From: Octopus vulgaris
Lineage: Eukaryota
DNA length: 64,000 nt
Reading direction: 5' to 3'
Assembly: GCA_951406725.2 (NCBI GenBank)
Contig: OX597822.1
Location: forward strand, 53,506,001-53,570,000
Shown here: positions 2,559 through 57,980 of the stretch, in pieces
Layout: each line of letters opens with the position of its first letter
How positions within the stretch are numbered: the stretch's first letter is position 1
Notes under the pieces: generated by a model
What the model was told of the DNA's origin: nothing
The model's input: the letters and a program-made list of their open reading frames with translations, nothing else
Databases searched by the model: none
Made by a program: the position numbers and the translations under genes

Positions 2559-3743
2559 ATTTGTTGTTGTTGTTGTTGCTGCTGCTGCTGCTGCTATAAC
2601 AGTAGCTGTTTTGTTGTTGTTAATTCTTTCTCGGCAAACTTTACAGAATCAATATATTTTTTGAACTCCATATTTTTCTCATTTCCTTTTCATCAAGAAT
2701 GTTCTGGAAGACAGATAAAACCTAATAAAAAAACATTCTTTTATTATCACAATCAAACATTTCAATAGTCAAATATGTATGTGTCCATGTATGATATATG
2801 AATATAATATATGCATACACGTTTATATGTATGAACGTAGGAAAGTAGGTTGGTATAGAAAATTTTTGCTACTTTATTTTTTTCATTTACATCAGTATTT
2901 GTAATGAATTATGTAATTCATACAACATGAATCGGGAACTTAATATATCCAACTGTACTTTCTCACGTGATATTATTGACAGTGGAAATAAATATCAATC
3001 TATCTCTCTATCTATCTATCGACTTCTATTCAGGAAATTTGGTTGATATACTATGTAAACAACACTTATTTATTTGGATATTTTATGTAACAGTTTATTA
3101 ACAGTGACGGCGTCGGTCATGGGATTCATTGGTCCATTGAATATTTCTGACAGTGAGAATGATTGAGGAGTATCTGTAACTCGGTGTAGAACAAATATTT
3201 TAAAGGAACTCGTTCGAAAAGCGCATGTTTTTCAATTGACAGCATTCGTTGCTATATCCGCGAAAAATACACGCTAACACGAAAAATACGCGCTAAAAAT
3301 ACACACGCTAGCACACATATACACAAGCACACACATATGTATAATACATATATAAGTAAAAGATGCGTATACGGCAGTATATTAAATAAAGCTACGTAGT
3401 ACTCAATACGATATAATACTTTGGAATCATTCTTATTCAAAGCCTCGTCTTCACAGATCGCTATTCTGGTTTAACGTTGCTGCTTTTGTAATCCGAACCT
3501 TACACTATCGATCTGTAAAGATACAGCTTTGAATTAAAGTTACACACACACACACAGATAGATAGATACTTTTAATAAAATCACATTACTCTACCCTCGG
3601 TATTCGAGTACTATTTTTTCCATCTTGTTTTGCATTTATGCGCTTACTCGTGTGTTATATATATGTAACAAATGGTATAATTATAAACGGGACAAATTTT
3701 AGCCATTTCCCTGCAGACTGAGAAAAATGATGATGAAGTACAT

Positions 3744-4097
3744 TAATCGATTTTCGAACCTTATTTGGTTCTCATCAGAGGCGTCTGCATCATTCTGACA
3801 GTCTCCAGAGAAGCAAGCAACCAAACTGTTAATATACTCAACAAATGCAGCAGTTACTCTATGAAGGAGTCCCTAATTTGCACACCGAAAGTGTTTAACA
3901 GCCTGTCAACGGGGATCTTAGTCCACACAGTATTAAGGTATAATATATCTGTAACATATGGTATAATGAAAAAATTATGAACAACTATAATCGATTTTCG
4001 AACCTTACTGAGTTCTCATCAGGGGCGTCTACACTATTCTGACAGTCTCCAGAGAAACAAGCAAACTGTTTATATACTCCACAAACGTAGCAGTTAT
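3744..4097 (-). repeat. Direct repeat pair (~110 bp; 3744-3857 and 3988-4097), each carrying a hammerhead-like core
   Basis: Both read CUGAUGA-GAAC(C/U)-6 nt loop-GGUUC-GAAA-AUCGAU-UA on the minus strand. Helix I pairing is not evident. Confidence 0.6.
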
Positions 4098-12485: not shown

Positions 12486-14591
12486 GAAAAATGTAAAGAG
12501 TGAAAAAACTACAGAAGGCTTAAATGTTAAAAAATATATATATTTGCGTCAATATGTCTGAAGAATATTAGAAAATTTAAAAAAATTTTTTTTCTCTTAT
12601 AATGACATAATTTAAAAGAAAGACCGGTTTGGCGTTTAGCTTTTCAAATTTCTTGCGACGTTATGTTTATGTTCAGGAGAGTTCTAAATAAGGGAAGGTA
12701 GTGAGTGATTTCTTCCGGTGTAAGGGAGATAATCGCTTAAAATTTTTTTCCTTTCCCTTGGTGTGAATTTCTCTGTATGAGTATGTTCGAATGGTTGAGT
12801 CTGCGCTTGTATTTTTCAATGAAGAATGTTTCCTTGTTTAGTCTAATTTGTGTTGATGATTCGAAAGCACATTGGTAAAATGGAAAGATTAAAAATTGTG
12901 GTAGTAGTTGCTTTGCGCATTTTTCAATGTGCTCACTAAAAGGTATCATTCTATATTCTGAGAATGCAATCTGTTGTCGATGCAGTGTGCATCTACGTCT
13001 GAGTGATAGTCCCGTGGAACCCACGTAGTCTTGGTGGCAGCCCGAGCATTTTATGACATAAATTATGTTTTCAGAGGCACAAGTAAAGTTAGATTTGATC
13101 TTGAACTTCTGTCCCTCTTTACAGAGGAATTCTGATCCTTCTAGCAGGTTAGGGCATGTTGCACAGTTCGATCTACCACATTTTTTTACTTTTGCATCTG
13201 TAATTTCAGAAGACAATTTTGCCTTTGTGAGAATCTTTTTAAGTGATTTAGGCTGTTTGTAGCTTTTAATGATTTGGTGTATGTTTAGAATTTCCTTTAA
13301 TTTGGGGTATTTATGAAGTATTGGTAAATTCTGGGTGATGATGGTGAAGGCTTCTTTGTTTCTGGGGTTGTATGTAGATATGTAAGGTAGTATTTTCGGG
13401 GAAGGTGTGTTGTTGTGTTGAACTTTTCTTAAAGTTTCTATGTTGATTTCTGTTGCACGTCTGATCCCATCCTCTATGAGTTGAGCTGGGTAATGTCTGT
13501 CAATTAGGGTGTTTTTGAGTTCTTGCAGTCAAAAGTTCCTGGTATTTTGTTCTGACACTATTGTGCATATCCTTCTTGCAAGGTTGAAGGGGATGTTTGT
13601 TTTAGTGTGTCTTGGGTGGCATGAATTAAAAAGAAGGTATTGTTTGGCGTCTGTGGCTTTGTAAAAAATATCTGTTTCTATTTTAAGGTTAATTTTTTTA
13701 ATTAGTATATCCAAGAACGGGAGCTCCTTTTGGTTGTATTCCATTGTGAACTGTATATTTGGGTTTATGCTGTTCAATAGGTTTTTAAATTTTAGGAGTT
13801 TATCTGTGTTTTCATTCCAGAGAATAAAACAATCGTCTAAGAATCGTTTCCAATTCTCTTTTATGTATTGAGAGAGGGGTTTCCAAAGATTGATAAAGAT
13901 TCCTGGTAAATGATTATTTCCATGTATCCCATTGTTAAGTTCGCAATGACTGGTGCTGCCCTTGTACCCATAGCAATTCCGGATTTTTGACGGTAAAATG
14001 TATTGTCAAACATGAAGTGGTTATTGTGTAGGATGAATTCAATTGATTTAGTAATGAATTCTTTACTGATCCTTTTGGTATTTCTTCCGGAAATTGGTCT
14101 AACCAGAACTGTATTGCCTCCAGTCCATAATTATGAGGTATACTGGTATATAAGTTAACTACATCAAATGAAACCAGGATTGTTTCTTCCTTGGCTTTTT
14201 TGGAAGGTGGTTTAACATATCTAAGTCATCTCTGATATGGCTATCGATATGTTTAAGGAAGGGTTTCAGGAGGATGTCCATAAGTAGACTTAGTCTGTGT
14301 GTTTCACAGGTTGGGCCAGCTACAATGGGTCGTAGTTTTAGGTCCCCCGGGTTAGGTGTGTGTATGTATGTCTTTGGTGATTTTTTAATGGTTTCATTTA
14401 TAATTTGACTTTTATGAATTTTTGGCAGACCATAGAAAAGGCTAGGTTTGCATTTAAAGTTTGTTAGGAAGTCAATCTCTTTGGTTGTTAGTTCCTTTTC
14501 ATGGGTTTTAATTAGTGAAGATAGAGTTTTCATTATTTTTTGTGGGTGTAGTTGGTCATTTTTTCATAATGTAGGTCGTCATCAAGCAAGG

Positions 14592-21111: not shown

Positions 21112-21629
21112 TAGTTTCATTTTTATAGCGTGTTTTCACTTCACTACCGAGCGCAGCTCTGTGTGCCTTGGATATGTGCTGTGATTTGTTGTGATGTTCT
21201 GATGGTTATTGTATGGAAAGTGTTCTGCGTAGGATGTGTGCAGTGCCTAATAGTGCAATTTTCTGTATGTTATATGTGTTTGTAAGTCTTGGTGTTTTTG
21301 TTATGTATTTGTCTGAATATTTTTTTATCATGCCTAATGCACCTACTATGATAGGAATTGTTTCTGTTTTTAGATTCCACATTCTGGTTACCTCTATTTC
21401 CAGGTCTTTGTATTTTGAAAGTTTCTCCATTTCTTTTAGAGACACGTTGTCATCTGCCGGTATTGATACATCAATTAGAAAGCATTTTTTTCTTCATGAT
21501 CTCTGACATCTATATCTGGTCTGTTGGCCTTAATTTCTCTATCTGTGTGTATCGGCATATCCCAGAGTATGGTTGCTTTCTCGTTTTCTGTGACCTTTTC
21601 TGGTGTGTGCCTATACCATCTTTTTTCTG

Positions 21630-21631
<2 letters not shown>
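21109..21631 (-). mobile_element. 5'-truncated R4/Dong-type element (REL endonuclease) in (TTA)n
   Basis: Encodes WYRHTPEKVTENEKATILWDMPIHTDREIKANRPDI and KLSKYKDLEIEVTRMWNLKTETIPIIVGALG...LLGTAHILRR, with (TTA)n on both sides. Confidence 0.9.
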
Positions 21632-21711
<80 letters not shown>

Positions 21712-21714
<3 letters not shown>

Positions 21715-21906
21715 GCCGGCGAGCTTAGCAGAATCGTTAGCACGCTGGACGAAATGCTTTGCGATATTTCGCCCGTCGCTACGCTTTGAGTTCAAATTCC
21801 ACAGAGGTCGACTTTGCCTTATATCCTTTCGTAGTGGATAAATTAAGTACCAATGTAATCGACTACCACCTTCCCACAAATTTTAGGTCTTGTGCCTATA
21901 ATAGAA

Positions 21907-21908
<2 letters not shown>
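21712..21908 (+). mobile_element. SINE family A between (TTA)n tracts
   Basis: Same head and central domain as 20808-21020. Confidence 0.85.
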
Positions 21909-21980
<72 letters not shown>

Positions 21981-21989
21981 TACTACTAC

Positions 21990-22451
<462 letters not shown>

Positions 22452-22499
22452 CATTATTATTATTATTATTATCATTATTATTATTGCTGTTGTTGTTGT

Positions 22500-23028
22500 T
22501 AGTTACTTTTAATTTGCATGTTTATTACAATCACTTGCTGAGACGCACCAAGCGCCCTAGGACGAGTGAAGAATAAGAGATGTTACACTATGACAAATCT
22601 TGGGGAAGGAAAGTGGAAGTAGAAGGGGTAGTAGCGCAATATCTTCATGTAATACAATACAAACCTTTGAATTGACAGGGTATTTCCAAGGACGTGGGCG
22701 GTACTTGCCAGCACAATCTTTTGGATTTCTCTGAGACATGGTTCTCCTGGGATGTTGTCTAGTTGTTTCTGACACCCTTTTTTTTATCATACCTAGGAAT
22801 AGTTCTTGCTTTAAGATGCCACATTGTATTTCAATTTCCAGGTCCTTATATTTACTTAATTTGTCAAATTCCTTTACAGATATACTTTTATCAGTGGAAA
22901 CATTTACATCTATTAGTCTACAAGTATTTTCTTCCCTCTCTTTAATAATTATATCTGGTCGATTAGTCTGTTTCGTTATGACAGTGTTGACTGGAAAACC
23001 CCAGAAGATAGAGACATTTTTACCTTGA
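22500..23028 (-). mobile_element. R4/Dong-type REL-domain fragment
   Basis: Encodes NRPDIIIKEREENTCRLIDVNVSTDKSISVKEFDKLSKYKDLEIEI...IQKIVLASTAHVL. Its 3' end abuts (TTA)n/(TTG)n. Confidence 0.8.
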
Positions 23029-23222
23029 AAAACTATCGAAATGGAAGGACCTGGAGATTGAGATATCTAAGACGTGGCAATTAAACCATCCCCGTTGTTA
23101 TGGATGCCTTGAAAATGATCCAGAAAGATATCGACTAGTACTTTTGATCAGATTCTTGGGAAAGCGACAATCTATGATGTTCAAAGTTTGGTGCTGATAT
23201 CAGCCTCTCACTTCTCGGGAAG
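23029..23222 (+). mobile_element. Inverted R4/Dong REL fragment, homologous to 24305-24505
   Basis: Encodes KLSKWKDLEIEISKTWQL..IPVV on the plus strand and is the reverse-complement match of 24305-24505. Confidence 0.7.
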
Positions 23223-27596: not shown

Positions 27597-29687
27597 AATT
27601 TTGGGATGGAGTAACCCATATCTAGTTTGCAACTTCCTTGTCTGTCTGTCTGAGCTGTTTAGTTCGTCAACTGTCCATGCGCTTACCCCTGCTCCATGTC
27701 TAAGGAGTGAAACTGTCCAGGTGTTGATAGCTTCGATCTTATTCCGTTCGTTTAATTTCGTCTTAAGAATCAGTCTCAGTCTGTTATTTCTTTCTCCATC
27801 AATTTATCCATTTCCAAAATCCCCAAGTACTAATGACCCGTCTCTTCTATCTGCTTCATAACCTCCCCCCGACGGTATCGTTAGTCCGTCCATACATTTG
27901 ATTTTGCCGCTCTTCAATACTAACACACCTCACTTTCTTACTCCGAACCCCATTCTGATATCAGCACTGAAGGCATACACCGTATCAACAAGGGAACTGA
28001 CTTGGGCTTCATCTTTACCCATAAAGTTTGAGGCCATCCATGAATAACAAATGGTTGACTTTTTGCTGGCGGCTTTTGAATACATACCCAGCTTTTGCTT
28101 TCCCCAGAATCACTGTTAGTGGTATCAAGAACAGTACAAAGATCAGTGAGGACAGGCAGTCCCCTTGAAAGATACCCTTCCAAATTTCTACTGTCCCTAA
28201 ACTTCTCCTGTATGCTGTCAGGTCCATCCATCCAATTCGCCATGTTTTTTCCAAGCAATCGCTCAACATTCGATGCGATGCCAAATAGGTTCATACACTC
28301 TATAATCCAAGAATGTGGGATCATATCGTACGCCTTACGATAGTCGATCCATAACATGGCAAGGTTACTTTTCCTCCTCTTGCAGTCTCTAAGTACAGTT
28401 TTGTCTATCAGGAATTGATCCTTGGTACCTCTGCACATACGCTTGCAAACCTTCTGCTCATGTGTCAGGACTCCATATTTTTCCAGATGTTCGTACATTG
28501 ACTCTGCGAGTATTCCAGTCAATAACCTCCACATAAGTAGCAAACAGGATATCGGCCTGTAAATGTTTACCCTATTGTCTTTTTCGAAGTTTTTCAGGCA
28601 CAGCACCGTGCTACCCAGTGTCAACCACTCTGCTGTTACTTGGTCGGCATTTAACAAGGTGTTGAGATGCGCAGCTATTCGTGCATGACATTCACCAAAT
28701 ATTTTGATCCAGTAGCCTTGCACTCCATCTGCTCCCGGAGCCTTCCAGTTGCTCTTTTTTTGTTGATTTCCTCCACTTCCTTAACTGAAATGACTAGTTC
28801 TGCCTGTTTTGGACAGACTACTGTTTGCTTCAGTTCTTGCAACCATTCAGCATCCTTCTTGTGCTCCTTGTCTTTGCTCCAGATGTCACTCCAAAACCTT
28901 TGACTTTTAATGTCATCTGGTATCAACTTTTCATCTGTACACTTTCCATTTATTTCTTTATAGAAACTCTTCTGATCTACTCTGAACCACCTATTCTGGT
29001 GAAAACCCTTCATTCTTTGGTCGTATCTTTCCATCTTTGCATTCTTTGCAACGAGGCACTGTTTCAGTTCCTCCACTACTACATTCAGGTCCTTTCTTTC
29101 AATATTATACTTCCTTTTCAGCGCCCTGTATTTTTGTTCGCTTTTAAGCTCCCCTTTCCCTATTCTGTCTAACACAGAGATTTCTGTCGAGAGCATGTCT
29201 AACCCTACCTGGATTCTTCTTTTCCACATGGATCTTTTCTTTTATCGCTCCCATTATGTTTCTTTTTCTTTACATCAACACCCACGTTTTCTGCTACAAC
29301 AATACTTGCTGCCTTGATCAAATTATTTGTTTTGTGATGTTGTTTGTTCTGATCTATTTCAGAATTTCATTGACATTTTTCGTTTCTTGGTTCAATTTCT
29401 ATCGATCAAACTTTTTAAGGTTGCAAATAATGTCGTTATCGTTCTCCTGTAATCTTACATTTATTCTGTCGTAGATTGCTTTTTGTTCATTTGTCATGTC
29501 GTCATTAGTTTTATTATCTTCTTTTAGATCATCTATAAGTCTGTCATCAAGTAAACTACCACTACTTCTTTCCTGCGAAATGGGATTACTCTTACTACTA
29601 AGAACTGTATTTTCATTGTAATCTGTTATTTTCCATGACCTGCCTTTTGATAGCTTCGAGCTCTACAGTAAACCAACAATTTTCCCT
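27597..29687 (-). mobile_element. R4/Dong-type element, N-terminal and RT region (best-preserved RT in the window), 3' part missing
   Basis: Contains YRPISCL, EQKVCKRMCRGTKDQFLID, WIDYRKAYDMIPHSWI, GIFQGDCLSSLIF, HLLFMDGLKLYG and NKIEAINTW. Confidence 0.9.
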
Positions 29688-32513: not shown

Positions 32514-32694
32514 AAAATAATATCAATATTTTATCACTACTTAATGCTGGAAGCTGACCGAATCGTTACCTCGGCGACAAAATGCTTATCAGCATTTCTT
32601 CCGACTTTAGATTCTGAGTTCTATATTTAAGAGTTGAGGAATTATGTACATTATTTACATTTGACGGGTATTTGTCCTCATCTTGTTTGTTCTT

Positions 32695-32740
32695 AACACA
32701 ACGTTTCGGCTGATATACCCTCCAGCCTTCATCAGGTGTC
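32695..32740 (-). ncRNA. Minimal type I hammerhead ribozyme
   Basis: GACAC-CUGAUGA-A-GGCUG-GAGGGUAUAU-CAGCC-GAAA-CG-UU^GUGUU: helix I GACAC/GUGUU, 5-bp helix II, intact CUGAUGA and GAAA core, and palindromic AACGUU as helix III. Confidence 0.8.
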
Positions 32741-32792
32741 TTGGGAAAATTTCGAACCTGAGTTCTCATTCCTGAGGTCTCATTCGATGTTG

Positions 32793-32838
<46 letters not shown>

Positions 32839-32957
32839 CATCATCATTATTATTATTCAGGTCACCTCCTGGAATCGAATTCGGAATCTTGTGGTTAGTA
32901 GCCCGCGCTCTGGAATCGAACTCAGAATCGATTCCAAGCAGTGACCTGAACAATAAT

Positions 32958-32995
<38 letters not shown>

Positions 32996-33050
32996 CGACG
33001 ACGTCGAAAATTATCTTCGGATTGAGAATCCAGGTTCGAAAATTCCTCAA

Positions 33051-33093
33051 GACACCTGATGAAGATTGGAGGGTATATCAGCCAAAACGTGTT
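33051..33093 (+). ncRNA. Degenerate hammerhead copy (probably inactive)
   Basis: GACAC-CUGAUGA-A-GAUUG..CAGCC-AAAA-CGUGUU: GAAA is changed to AAAA, helix II has a mismatch, and 3 nt are missing at the cleavage site. Confidence 0.65.
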
Positions 33094-33559
33094 AACAACA
33101 AAGAAGCTGGGGATAACAATCAATCAAATGTAAATAATGTAAATAATTTAGATTCTGAGTTTACATGCCGCCGAGGTCGACTTTATCTTTCATCCCTTCG
33201 GGACCGATAAAATATGTTCCAGTTAAACAATGGGGCCGATACAATCGACCTGCCATCTCTCTCGAAATTGTTAACCTTATACTAAAATTTGAAACCAATA
33301 TTTTATTGCCACTTGAGAAACGAGAATGCAAAGATATAATACTCCTTTATATTCGAAACAAAGAACAAGACTACTAAACCATTTAATATATTGCTTGCGC
33401 CATGTCGTAGCTTCTGGGAAAGAAAATATATTGATTTTTGTATAGAGATAAAAATATATATGCAATATGTTCGGGTTAACTTGACGAATTATATGTCTTC
33501 TTTTTCCAAGAACAGCTTAATATATTGGTGAATAGTTAACACCATTGGGGAGCATAAAA

Positions 33560-57289: not shown

Positions 57290-57980
57290 GAATTTTCCCA
57301 TACTATTTTGCAAATTGGAGAAGGAAGGTTAGGTATCAATCATGAAGGGGACTTGAATCCATCAAAAATCTGCACCTTAGTCAGTCGGTAGAGAAAGTTA
57401 TTGAAAATGTTTTTCCAAGTATAATTTCAAAATACACAAATGCTGCTTGTTTGTGCGTTACTGTGAATAATTTAAATGAAAGACTCGAGAAACCTTTACC
57501 AGGAAACGAGCATACTTGCAAATCTATAGACTCTGTTGTGGATGAATCGGAAATAGTCAATTACTCGGTTGAATTATTAAACAAACTGCAGCCACCAGGA
57601 ACTCCTCCTCGTTGCTTTCCATTGAAAATAGGCGCTCCAATCAGGCTTCTGCGCACACTTTCTCAACCAAAGTTCTGCAATGGCACAAGACTTGTCAAGA
57701 AATTAATGAGCAATGTCATACAGGCCATCATAATTTCTGGCTGTACAAAAAGGTGAAGATGTTTTTATTCCTCGCTTACCTTTAATACCTTCCAATATGC
57801 CCTTCGTGTTCAAATGACTTTAATTTCCACTACGTCTGTCTTTTGCGATGTCCATTAATACATCCTAAGTTCGACTTTGACAGTTGCTGATTTCTCACAC
57901 TGTCAGCTATATATTGGGACATCCAGAGTGAGGAGCAAGAACAATCTTTTCATTTTTGCCCCTACTATTAAAACCCGAAA
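57290..57980 (+). pseudogene. Helitron-type PIF1 helicase C-terminal remnant
   Basis: Contains [74 protein letters not shown] and TRNIVYKEV, with stops and frameshifts. Confidence 0.88.

Follow-up and report, generated by a model that had tools for sequence, protein, structure and literature searches.

The closest described systems to the locus analysed here are the Penelope elements (PLEs), whose copies are inverted and truncated and carry a tail at one end (Craig 2021, PMC8557442). Work on the Poseidon protein of Anolis shows that both target strands are cut and extended, and that two internal start sites of reverse transcription define the tail (Frangieh 2024, PMC11167929). Here we describe an insertion in Octopus vulgaris (assembly GCA_951406725.2), located in a window, by which we mean the whole analysed stretch of 64,000 nucleotides (contig OX597822.1, positions 53,506,001 to 53,570,000 of the forward strand), together with its relatives across the genome. 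As in Anolis Poseidon (PAc; PMC11167929) and the minimal-hammerhead PLEs (PMC4209133), the element behind this insertion combines a reverse transcriptase (RT) with a GIY-YIG region at the C-terminus in an ORF of about 830-850 aa, with a hammerhead that overlaps the ORF start and a cut site downstream of the start codon. It further shares with these elements the unpaired base before helix II, the palindromic positions 15.2-16.2, an optional tail, inverted truncated copies and AT-rich targets. Unlike them as published, the octopus pseudo-LTR (pLTR) has an (AAT)n run and a head of 75 nt that derives from a tRNA and includes both an A and a B box. It is at this head that most copies begin, and the sense strand has no shared T4 run; the tail measures about 20-30 nt, compared with 30-40 nt in the published elements.

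Three other groups of repeats bear comparison. Schistosoma SM-alpha and Sj-alpha (PMC6765202) likewise unite an apparent Pol III promoter and a type I hammerhead in a short repeat; SM-alpha, however, forms tandem head-to-tail units freed by cleavage, with a partner element left unnamed in the review text, whereas the octopus repeat has a partner in the genome that shares its whole unit, and forms dispersed head-to-head pairs with ends that lie off the cut site. The non-LTR retrozymes of animals (Cervera 2020, PMC7229834; Li 2026) are also non-coding, pLTR-related hammerhead repeats thought to be moved by PLEs, but as described every one of their tandem units contains a ribozyme, and they give circular RNAs; tandem arrays are not characteristic of the octopus family, and instead of the head-to-tail hammerhead units that define non-LTR retrozymes we observed head-to-head arrangements at 53 of 90 loci. 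Neither 'tRNA' nor 'promoter' occurs in the Li 2026 preprint (10.64898/2026.07.22.740005). The TRIMp3 elements (Cassandra, Helenus and Ajax; Kojima 2024, PMC10886601) similarly place a small-RNA-derived Pol III promoter in a terminal repeat; these belong to the non-autonomous LTR elements, and it is argued that their autonomous partners lack the promoter, whereas the coding octopus PLE carries the promoter-like head itself. TRIMp3 elements are defined by two direct LTRs, a PBS and PPT, and 4-5-bp target-site duplications, where the octopus family has inverted arms and 8-15-nt duplications, and 'Penelope' does not occur in Kojima 2024 (PMC10886601).

The short form of the octopus element consists of about 75 nt of head, the (AAT)n run and 175 nt of body. 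SINEs are defined as passengers of LINEs, and Ohshima and Okada reportedly described in 1994 the octopus SINEs OK, OR1 and OR2, of which OR1 and OR2 are said to derive from tRNA-Arg and to have been found by in vitro transcription. The short form may be OR1 or another catalogued octopus SINE, a comparison made by description only; OR2 is listed as a CORE-SINE (PMC4758252), which does not fit a body of PLE coding sequence. Measured against the SINEBase definition (PMC3531059), the short form is shorter than 700 bp, non-coding and headed by a tRNA derivative, but it is partnered by a PLE and not a LINE, its simple repeat is internal and PLE coding sequence forms its 3' end. In its workings it is SINE-like, without being a member of that class by the SINEBase definition. 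Among the papers listed by full-text searches of largely open-access literature, none described a PLE whose promoter derives from a tRNA or a SINE driven by a PLE.

We consider it probable, if well short of certain, that the insert comprises two head-to-head, 5'-truncated pLTR copies that arose through retroposition, by the Penelope protein, of short Pol III RNAs made from the captured head. New are the pile-up of 5' ends at the head, the lack of a shared T4 run in the 2.6-kb sense strand and the absence of such a head from 76 relatives. The family would provide a short, tRNA-headed element whose Penelope driver is identified by sequence, a simple birth route for a SINE-like element through capture of a tRNA piece in the driver's terminal repeat, and a concrete model for orphan repeats such as SM-alpha that combine Pol III promoters and hammerheads.

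Layout of the insertion in the window

Direct inspection of the sequence bore out the predicted insertion, a 526-nt insert between identical 15-mers at 32606-32620 and 33147-33161 (plus strand), which interrupts a SINE of another, abundant family (5' part 32553-32620, 3' part 33147-33302, plus strand). As the left and right flank matches abut or overlap in four other copies of this host SINE in the window, a single SINE was split by the insert. The last 4 nt of the left duplication (32617-32620) are identical to the element's own 3' end, and the true duplication is therefore 11-15 nt long. Also as described at the outset, the insert is composed of two outward-pointing arms, 78-82% identical to each other, with internal (AAT)n and (AAC)n runs and an extra B-box copy at their junction.

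Arm A lies on the minus strand, and its body (32621-32790) corresponds to the pLTR together with the opening ~50 codons of the Penelope ORF, whose ATG lies at 32769-32767; what had been read as an A-rich SINE tail is in fact this coding sequence. Its outermost ~20-25 nt (32621-32640) represent the Penelope 'tail', which is absent from arm B and marks the distal of the two 3' ends of the family. Within the body lie a minimal type I hammerhead motif with an intact core (32695-32740; predicted cut between 32700 and 32699) and, more speculatively, a possible relic of a second hammerhead-like motif (32744-32772; AUGA-GAAC..GUUC-GAAA, with degenerate first core bases). The (AAT)n spacer (32791-32857), variable in length and an insertion target in other copies, is followed by positions 22-75 of the 75-nt tRNA-derived head (32858-32911), which retains a B box with one mismatch and has lost its A box through 5' truncation. 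Between the arms, an extra copy of head positions 45-64 (32910-32929, minus strand) shows 2-nt microhomologies to both, and we infer that this 20-nt piece is a template-switch scar. Arm B, on the plus strand, is made up of a head stub (32928-32948, positions 55-75), an (AAT/AAC)n spacer (32949-33000) and a more decayed body without tail (33001-33146), whose hammerhead (33051-33093) is broken by a changed G12, a 3-nt loss of the cleavage triplet and mismatches in helix II. The A box is thus absent from both arms.

Differences from the column majority are found at 8 of 131 sites in arm A and 18 of 120 in arm B (p=0.023), and the two arms have no variants in common; they may derive from different RNA templates, arm B from a copy that had already decayed. 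Two other readings were set aside. Arm B is not a distinct subfamily, its best other match being 90% and the remainder 85-88%, and the likeness between junction piece and target site probably comes down to one CpG change in a B-box-like sequence.

The coding element and its hammerhead

The original prediction that the arms belong to a retroposon family agrees with the results of genome searches, in which the arm A body gave 3,815 candidate matches in 2.8 Gb and a 35-nt core string 1,598 exact matches; its reversed control gave none, which excludes a chance match to the hammerhead arm. With a mean arm divergence of 6% from the column majority, the genome would hold arms in numbers of the order of 10,000. 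The (AAT)n run of this Penelope element also serves as a landing site for LINEs that we take, from their endonuclease motif, to be R4/Dong-like: their 3' ends lie in the run at three loci (L012, L049 and L057), and LINEs of this kind are present at 21475-23066 and 27938-29241 of the window as well.

A GIY-YIG-type ORF ends just before the head in three of four loci inspected. Among 20 coding copies chosen by their endonuclease region (20 of the 41 matches listed), the head lies directly 3' of the ORF in 18 and the hammerhead body is present in 17, in the order ORF stop, ~30 nt, head, (AAT)n, hammerhead body. One natural copy (L142) is full length, running from body through ORF and head to body; it is open in frame from the hammerhead body into a conserved N-terminus, which aligns with the N-terminus of P0003, an intact relative of 847 aa (37% over 92 columns, E 2e-13). 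Partial-tandem pLTR organisation was seen in this copy and in L167 and L168. Family copies cover positions 15-847 of P0003, and the family RT is 55% identical to that protein and 35% identical to an 836-aa Anolis protein. A total of 39 relatives of 658-2000 aa were recovered at E<=1e-30, with an RVT_1 match for P0002 and no Pfam family in a search of P0001, and the alignment indicates a GIY-YIG-type C-terminus (Y-x-I-P-C-x-C-G...Y-x-G-x-T, with H768 conserved and CCHH residues). An extra Zn-finger-like linker marks Neptune and Nematis (Craig 2021, PMC8557442) and is absent from the family alignment.

Judged by these structural tests, the element is a PLE of the Penelope/Poseidon type, and the order of its parts identifies head, (AAT)n run and hammerhead as its pLTR. 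The Penelope RT/GIY-YIG machinery invoked in the original prediction is thereby present in the genome, whereas the separate non-coding family said to borrow it turns out to be the terminal repeat of the coding element itself. No intact ORF was present in 40 coding stretches examined, the longest stop-free piece being 375 aa, and the family is therefore probably inactive today. The window also contains a broken Neptune-like Penelope element (12737-14563, minus strand) with an RT, a CxxxxCxxC linker and a GIY-YIG region, the linker finger being present at 12737-13528, as well as an ORF fragment (57346-57756, plus strand) that resembles, from its motif, what is presumably a PIF1-type helicase of Helitrons.

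As predicted, a minimal hammerhead motif is present in arm A (32740-32695). Its helices I and II measure 5 and 6 bp, with CUGAUGA (32735-32729) and an unpaired A between them; GAAA and an ACGU palindrome follow, with the predicted cut after 32700. This form corresponds to the minimal hammerhead of Cervera and de la Pena 2014 (PMC4209133). From the arm B motif, G12 and the cleavage triplet of 3 nt are missing. A search of Rfam, proposed as a check, matched nothing in the window at gathering score, and around the insert neither a hammerhead nor a tRNA reached E<=10; miRNA matches obtained in this search were microsatellite artefacts. Within the family (43 unselected arms), core columns decay like those of the loop (0.76-0.97 and 0.78-1.0 majority, respectively) and no covariation was detected. 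The expected pairing is upheld among relatives, where a helix II of at least 4 bp, differing in sequence, accompanies 24 of 28 downstream core motifs and 5 of 36 control motifs; as the family itself contains no covariation, structural evidence for the hammerhead comes from relatives only. Single-strand folding gave weak z-scores of -1.4 for arm A and 0 for arm B, and a transcript of the head-to-head insert is predicted to form a long hairpin (-222 and -253 kcal/mol), inside which its sense ribozyme would lie buried.

Taken by its sequence, the hammerhead is a genuine motif inherited from the coding element, without sign of selection in the dispersed copies. The head-to-head geometry leaves one sense ribozyme per transcript, and therefore no cleaving dimer in cis, and self-cleavage was probably not how copies of the type in the window moved. 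The ribozyme is probably likewise dispensable for the insertion step, and cleavage was dispensable for insertion in vitro (Frangieh 2024, PMC11167929). A recurrent in-frame 3-nt loss removes the cleavage triplet in arm B (33087-33090) and in L292-L302; it affects ~6 of the 43 unselected arms and has no clearly linked variants. A second hammerhead-like family occupies 3620-4095 of the window (minus strand) in head-to-tail units of ~310 nt, with cores at 4022 and 3778 (CUGAUGA-GAAC..GUUC-GAAA, AUCGAU palindrome) that resemble the relic motif at 32744-32772. This family has 1,336 candidates genome-wide and no PLE ORF in eight loci, and its arrangement looks like that of a non-LTR retrozyme.

These results bear on a further explanation, in which the short copies form an independent SINE or retrozyme, that is, a separate non-coding family propagated through ribozyme-cut, possibly circular monomers, the coding copies being later chimeras. 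Short copies do exceed coding ones, the ORF being reached by 6 of 90 anchor arms; SM-alpha offers a precedent for the union of Pol III and a hammerhead (PMC6765202), and animal retrozymes derive from pLTRs (Li 2026, 10.64898/2026.07.22.740005). We nevertheless regard this explanation as improbable. The ORF-head junction is identical among coding copies, and, among 60 loci anchored on the first 25 nt of the head (60 of the first 64 listed, including a few local duplicates), the body lies downstream in 50 and an inverted arm is present in 7 of the other 10, with no free head-only SINE. Family 3' ends fall at two sites ~55-80 nt past the predicted cleavage site and not at it, copies are arranged head-to-head with one head-to-tail body pair (L042) in 90 loci, and 6 of 43 unselected arms are without the first base of the deleted triplet.

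The tRNA-derived head and the start of the short copies

Fuller copies carry a 75-nt head with both A and B boxes. Compared with 30 sampled genomic tRNAs, the head best matches Arg-TCG (49 of 73 positions identical; score 62.5, shuffle maximum 40.5), in keeping with the tRNA-like 3' half and B box originally noted in arm A. Two Arg-TCT genes follow with scores of 58.5 and 57.5, tied with Ala, and as the sample spanned six amino-acid types the assignment to tRNA-Arg is provisional. Programs for tRNA detection did not recognise the head: ARAGORN called no tRNA in the window or in 13 loci with fuller heads, and Rfam returned no match for the head in fuller copies either.

Most copies begin at this segment. 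In 47 of the 60 head-anchored loci the match to the upstream context extends only 0-7 nt, the remaining 13 continuing into the ORF, such that 78% of copies end within 8 nt of the head start. Exact 25-mers placed 12 nt apart gave 2,521 matches at the head start, where degeneracy at two positions allowed for CpG decay, and 712 at the ORF end, and breaks occur at a rate of 0.147 per nt at the head start, about 20-fold above the 0.007 inside the head. Pol III starts just before position 1 of a tRNA gene, and the pile-up, 0-7 nt before tRNA position 1, coincides with this start position. Because most copies start at the tRNA segment, the element likely spawned a SINE-like short form. In the mechanism that we favour, the captured head would act as an internal Pol III promoter, likely making short RNAs, which the element's own RT/GIY-YIG protein would then likely copy into DNA.

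Exactly at the pile-up, on the 5' edge of the head, lies a 5-bp palindrome (-3.4 to -5.3 kcal/mol as DNA) with a 2-nt loop that occurs in either orientation, as AC or as GT, with decay to AT (e.g. L354, L318, L356, L085 and L090), as expected from fold-back copying on a small palindrome. The same pile-up might accordingly be produced by ordinary Penelope truncation, under which the 3' UTR carries the tRNA piece as a passenger, every copy derives from a long RNA (Pol II or read-through), stalling or fold-back of RT at the palindrome gives rise to both the pile-up and the head-to-head joints, and the insert in the window is a routine inverted Penelope remnant. The palindrome precedes the head in coding copies too, and many junctions are perfect fold-backs with either loop orientation (15 AC, 2 GT and 10 AT among 32 scored). 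Furthermore, one locus (L168) joins ORF end, head, body and ORF start, implying that some templates began upstream of a head, and copies that are inverted and truncated are a general feature of PLEs (Craig 2021, PMC8557442). This explanation is possible but in our view doubtful: weak as the hairpin is, the ends of 78% of copies fall within 8 nt; of the 47 short copies, 10 start at the head without any inverted arm; the start falls just before tRNA position 1, the place expected of Pol III; and no T4 run is shared on the sense strand.

The last of these observations was examined across the element and its relatives. The sense strand contains 32 T4 runs in 78.5 kb of aligned copies (0.41 per kb) against 907 A4 runs, and along its 2.6 kb no T4 site is shared by more than two of the ~12-37 covering copies, whereas the Neptune-like PLE in the window, equal to it in T content, has 10 in 1,827 nt. 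Among 76 distinct metagenomic relatives (80 minus four duplicates) the median is 3.1 per kb, and one of 33 T-matched relatives is as low as the family; none of the 76, of which 48 have at least 300 nt of flank, carries A and B boxes after the ORF. Compared with matched shuffles of di- and trinucleotides (k=2,3), the depletion is modest (p 0.003-0.08), and the R4-like copies at L012 and L049 are likewise T4-poor. Phenylalanine codons at independent sites are TTC in 13 cases and TTT in 6, which is not significant (p=0.07), and shuffling of synonymous codons yielded an expectation of 12.8 T4 runs for 5 observed, a result that does not count as independent, as the 13 segments overlap one another along the element and two are maybe off-frame.

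Present-day RNA adds a point in favour of ordinary truncation. In three unstranded raw RNA-seq runs (150-nt paired libraries, ~6% of each examined) the family is deeply covered and many reads cross inverted joints. The ratio of head to ORF-end depth was 2.9, 4.0 and 4.1, compared with a genomic ratio of 3.5, and among the joints listed (15 of 99) molecule ends do not pile up at the head or at the cleavage site, where ends had been sought as a mark of self-cleavage. As depth follows the genomic ratio and discrete ends are lacking, the RNA looks like passive read-through; 150-nt paired libraries may miss short Pol III RNAs. Pol III transcription, as originally predicted, is therefore indirectly favoured by the pile-up of 5' ends and the T4 depletion, and finds no counterpart in RNA-seq in the form of a discrete start.

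A more far-reaching form of the Pol III reading is that the captured tRNA promoter replaced the Penelope promoter, with Pol III reading the whole terminator-free 2.6-kb unit from an upstream pLTR. We think this rather unlikely; if true, one promoter would serve the autonomous coding element and, from solo repeats, its own SINE, and it would have to be asked how an uncapped RNA was translated.

Inverted arms and integration

To place the arms of the window in the context of the family, we examined 90 hammerhead-anchored loci in genome order (from 100 listed of the 1,598 core matches), of which 53 have an inverted arm. Exactly one arm is tailed in 48 of these 53 pairs, neither in four and both in one. 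A flank string of at least 9 nt is common to the two sides in 23 of 53 pairs, compared with 1 of 53 mismatched pairs, and the insertions are flanked by duplications of 8-15 nt that vary in length among loci; arm lengths and junctions differ at every locus.

These features bear on whether the insert is instead a DNA element of the MITE kind, or two old insertions that lie side by side and form a fold-back by chance. The overall palindrome and the modest likeness of its arms (~78-82%) are compatible with such an origin, to which we attach almost no probability: only one arm is tailed, arm lengths and junctions vary per locus, one duplication of varying length bounds both arms, and the sequence belongs to an RT ORF. 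The tail asymmetry, varying duplications and ORF membership refute this reading.

By analogy with described copies, inverted arms of which exactly one is tailed are the known signature of Penelope integration, and the simplest model would be priming from both nicks followed by joining of the two cDNAs. Extrapolating from the biochemistry of Anolis Poseidon, the Penelope protein would nick both target strands with a stagger, and each nick would prime cDNA synthesis at one of the two internal start sites, giving a tailed and a tail-less arm. The far ends of the two cDNAs would then be joined, either through microhomology or through folding back at the small palindrome that lies on the head's 5' edge. 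A single tail in 48 of 53 pairs, staggered duplications and unequal arms fit two-nick priming, which has hitherto rested on one in vitro study, and the thousands of palindromic copies represent a natural data set for Penelope integration.

Arm asymmetry across 43 pairs is mildly overdispersed (p=0.019), with two clear outliers. Paired arms have 26 variants in common compared with 11 in permuted pairs, which suggests that some pairs were copied from one template or have been converted. Long inverted arms that include ORF sequence were observed at five loci (L043, L087, L104, L144 and L180), and the head-to-head geometry is therefore not limited to the short form.
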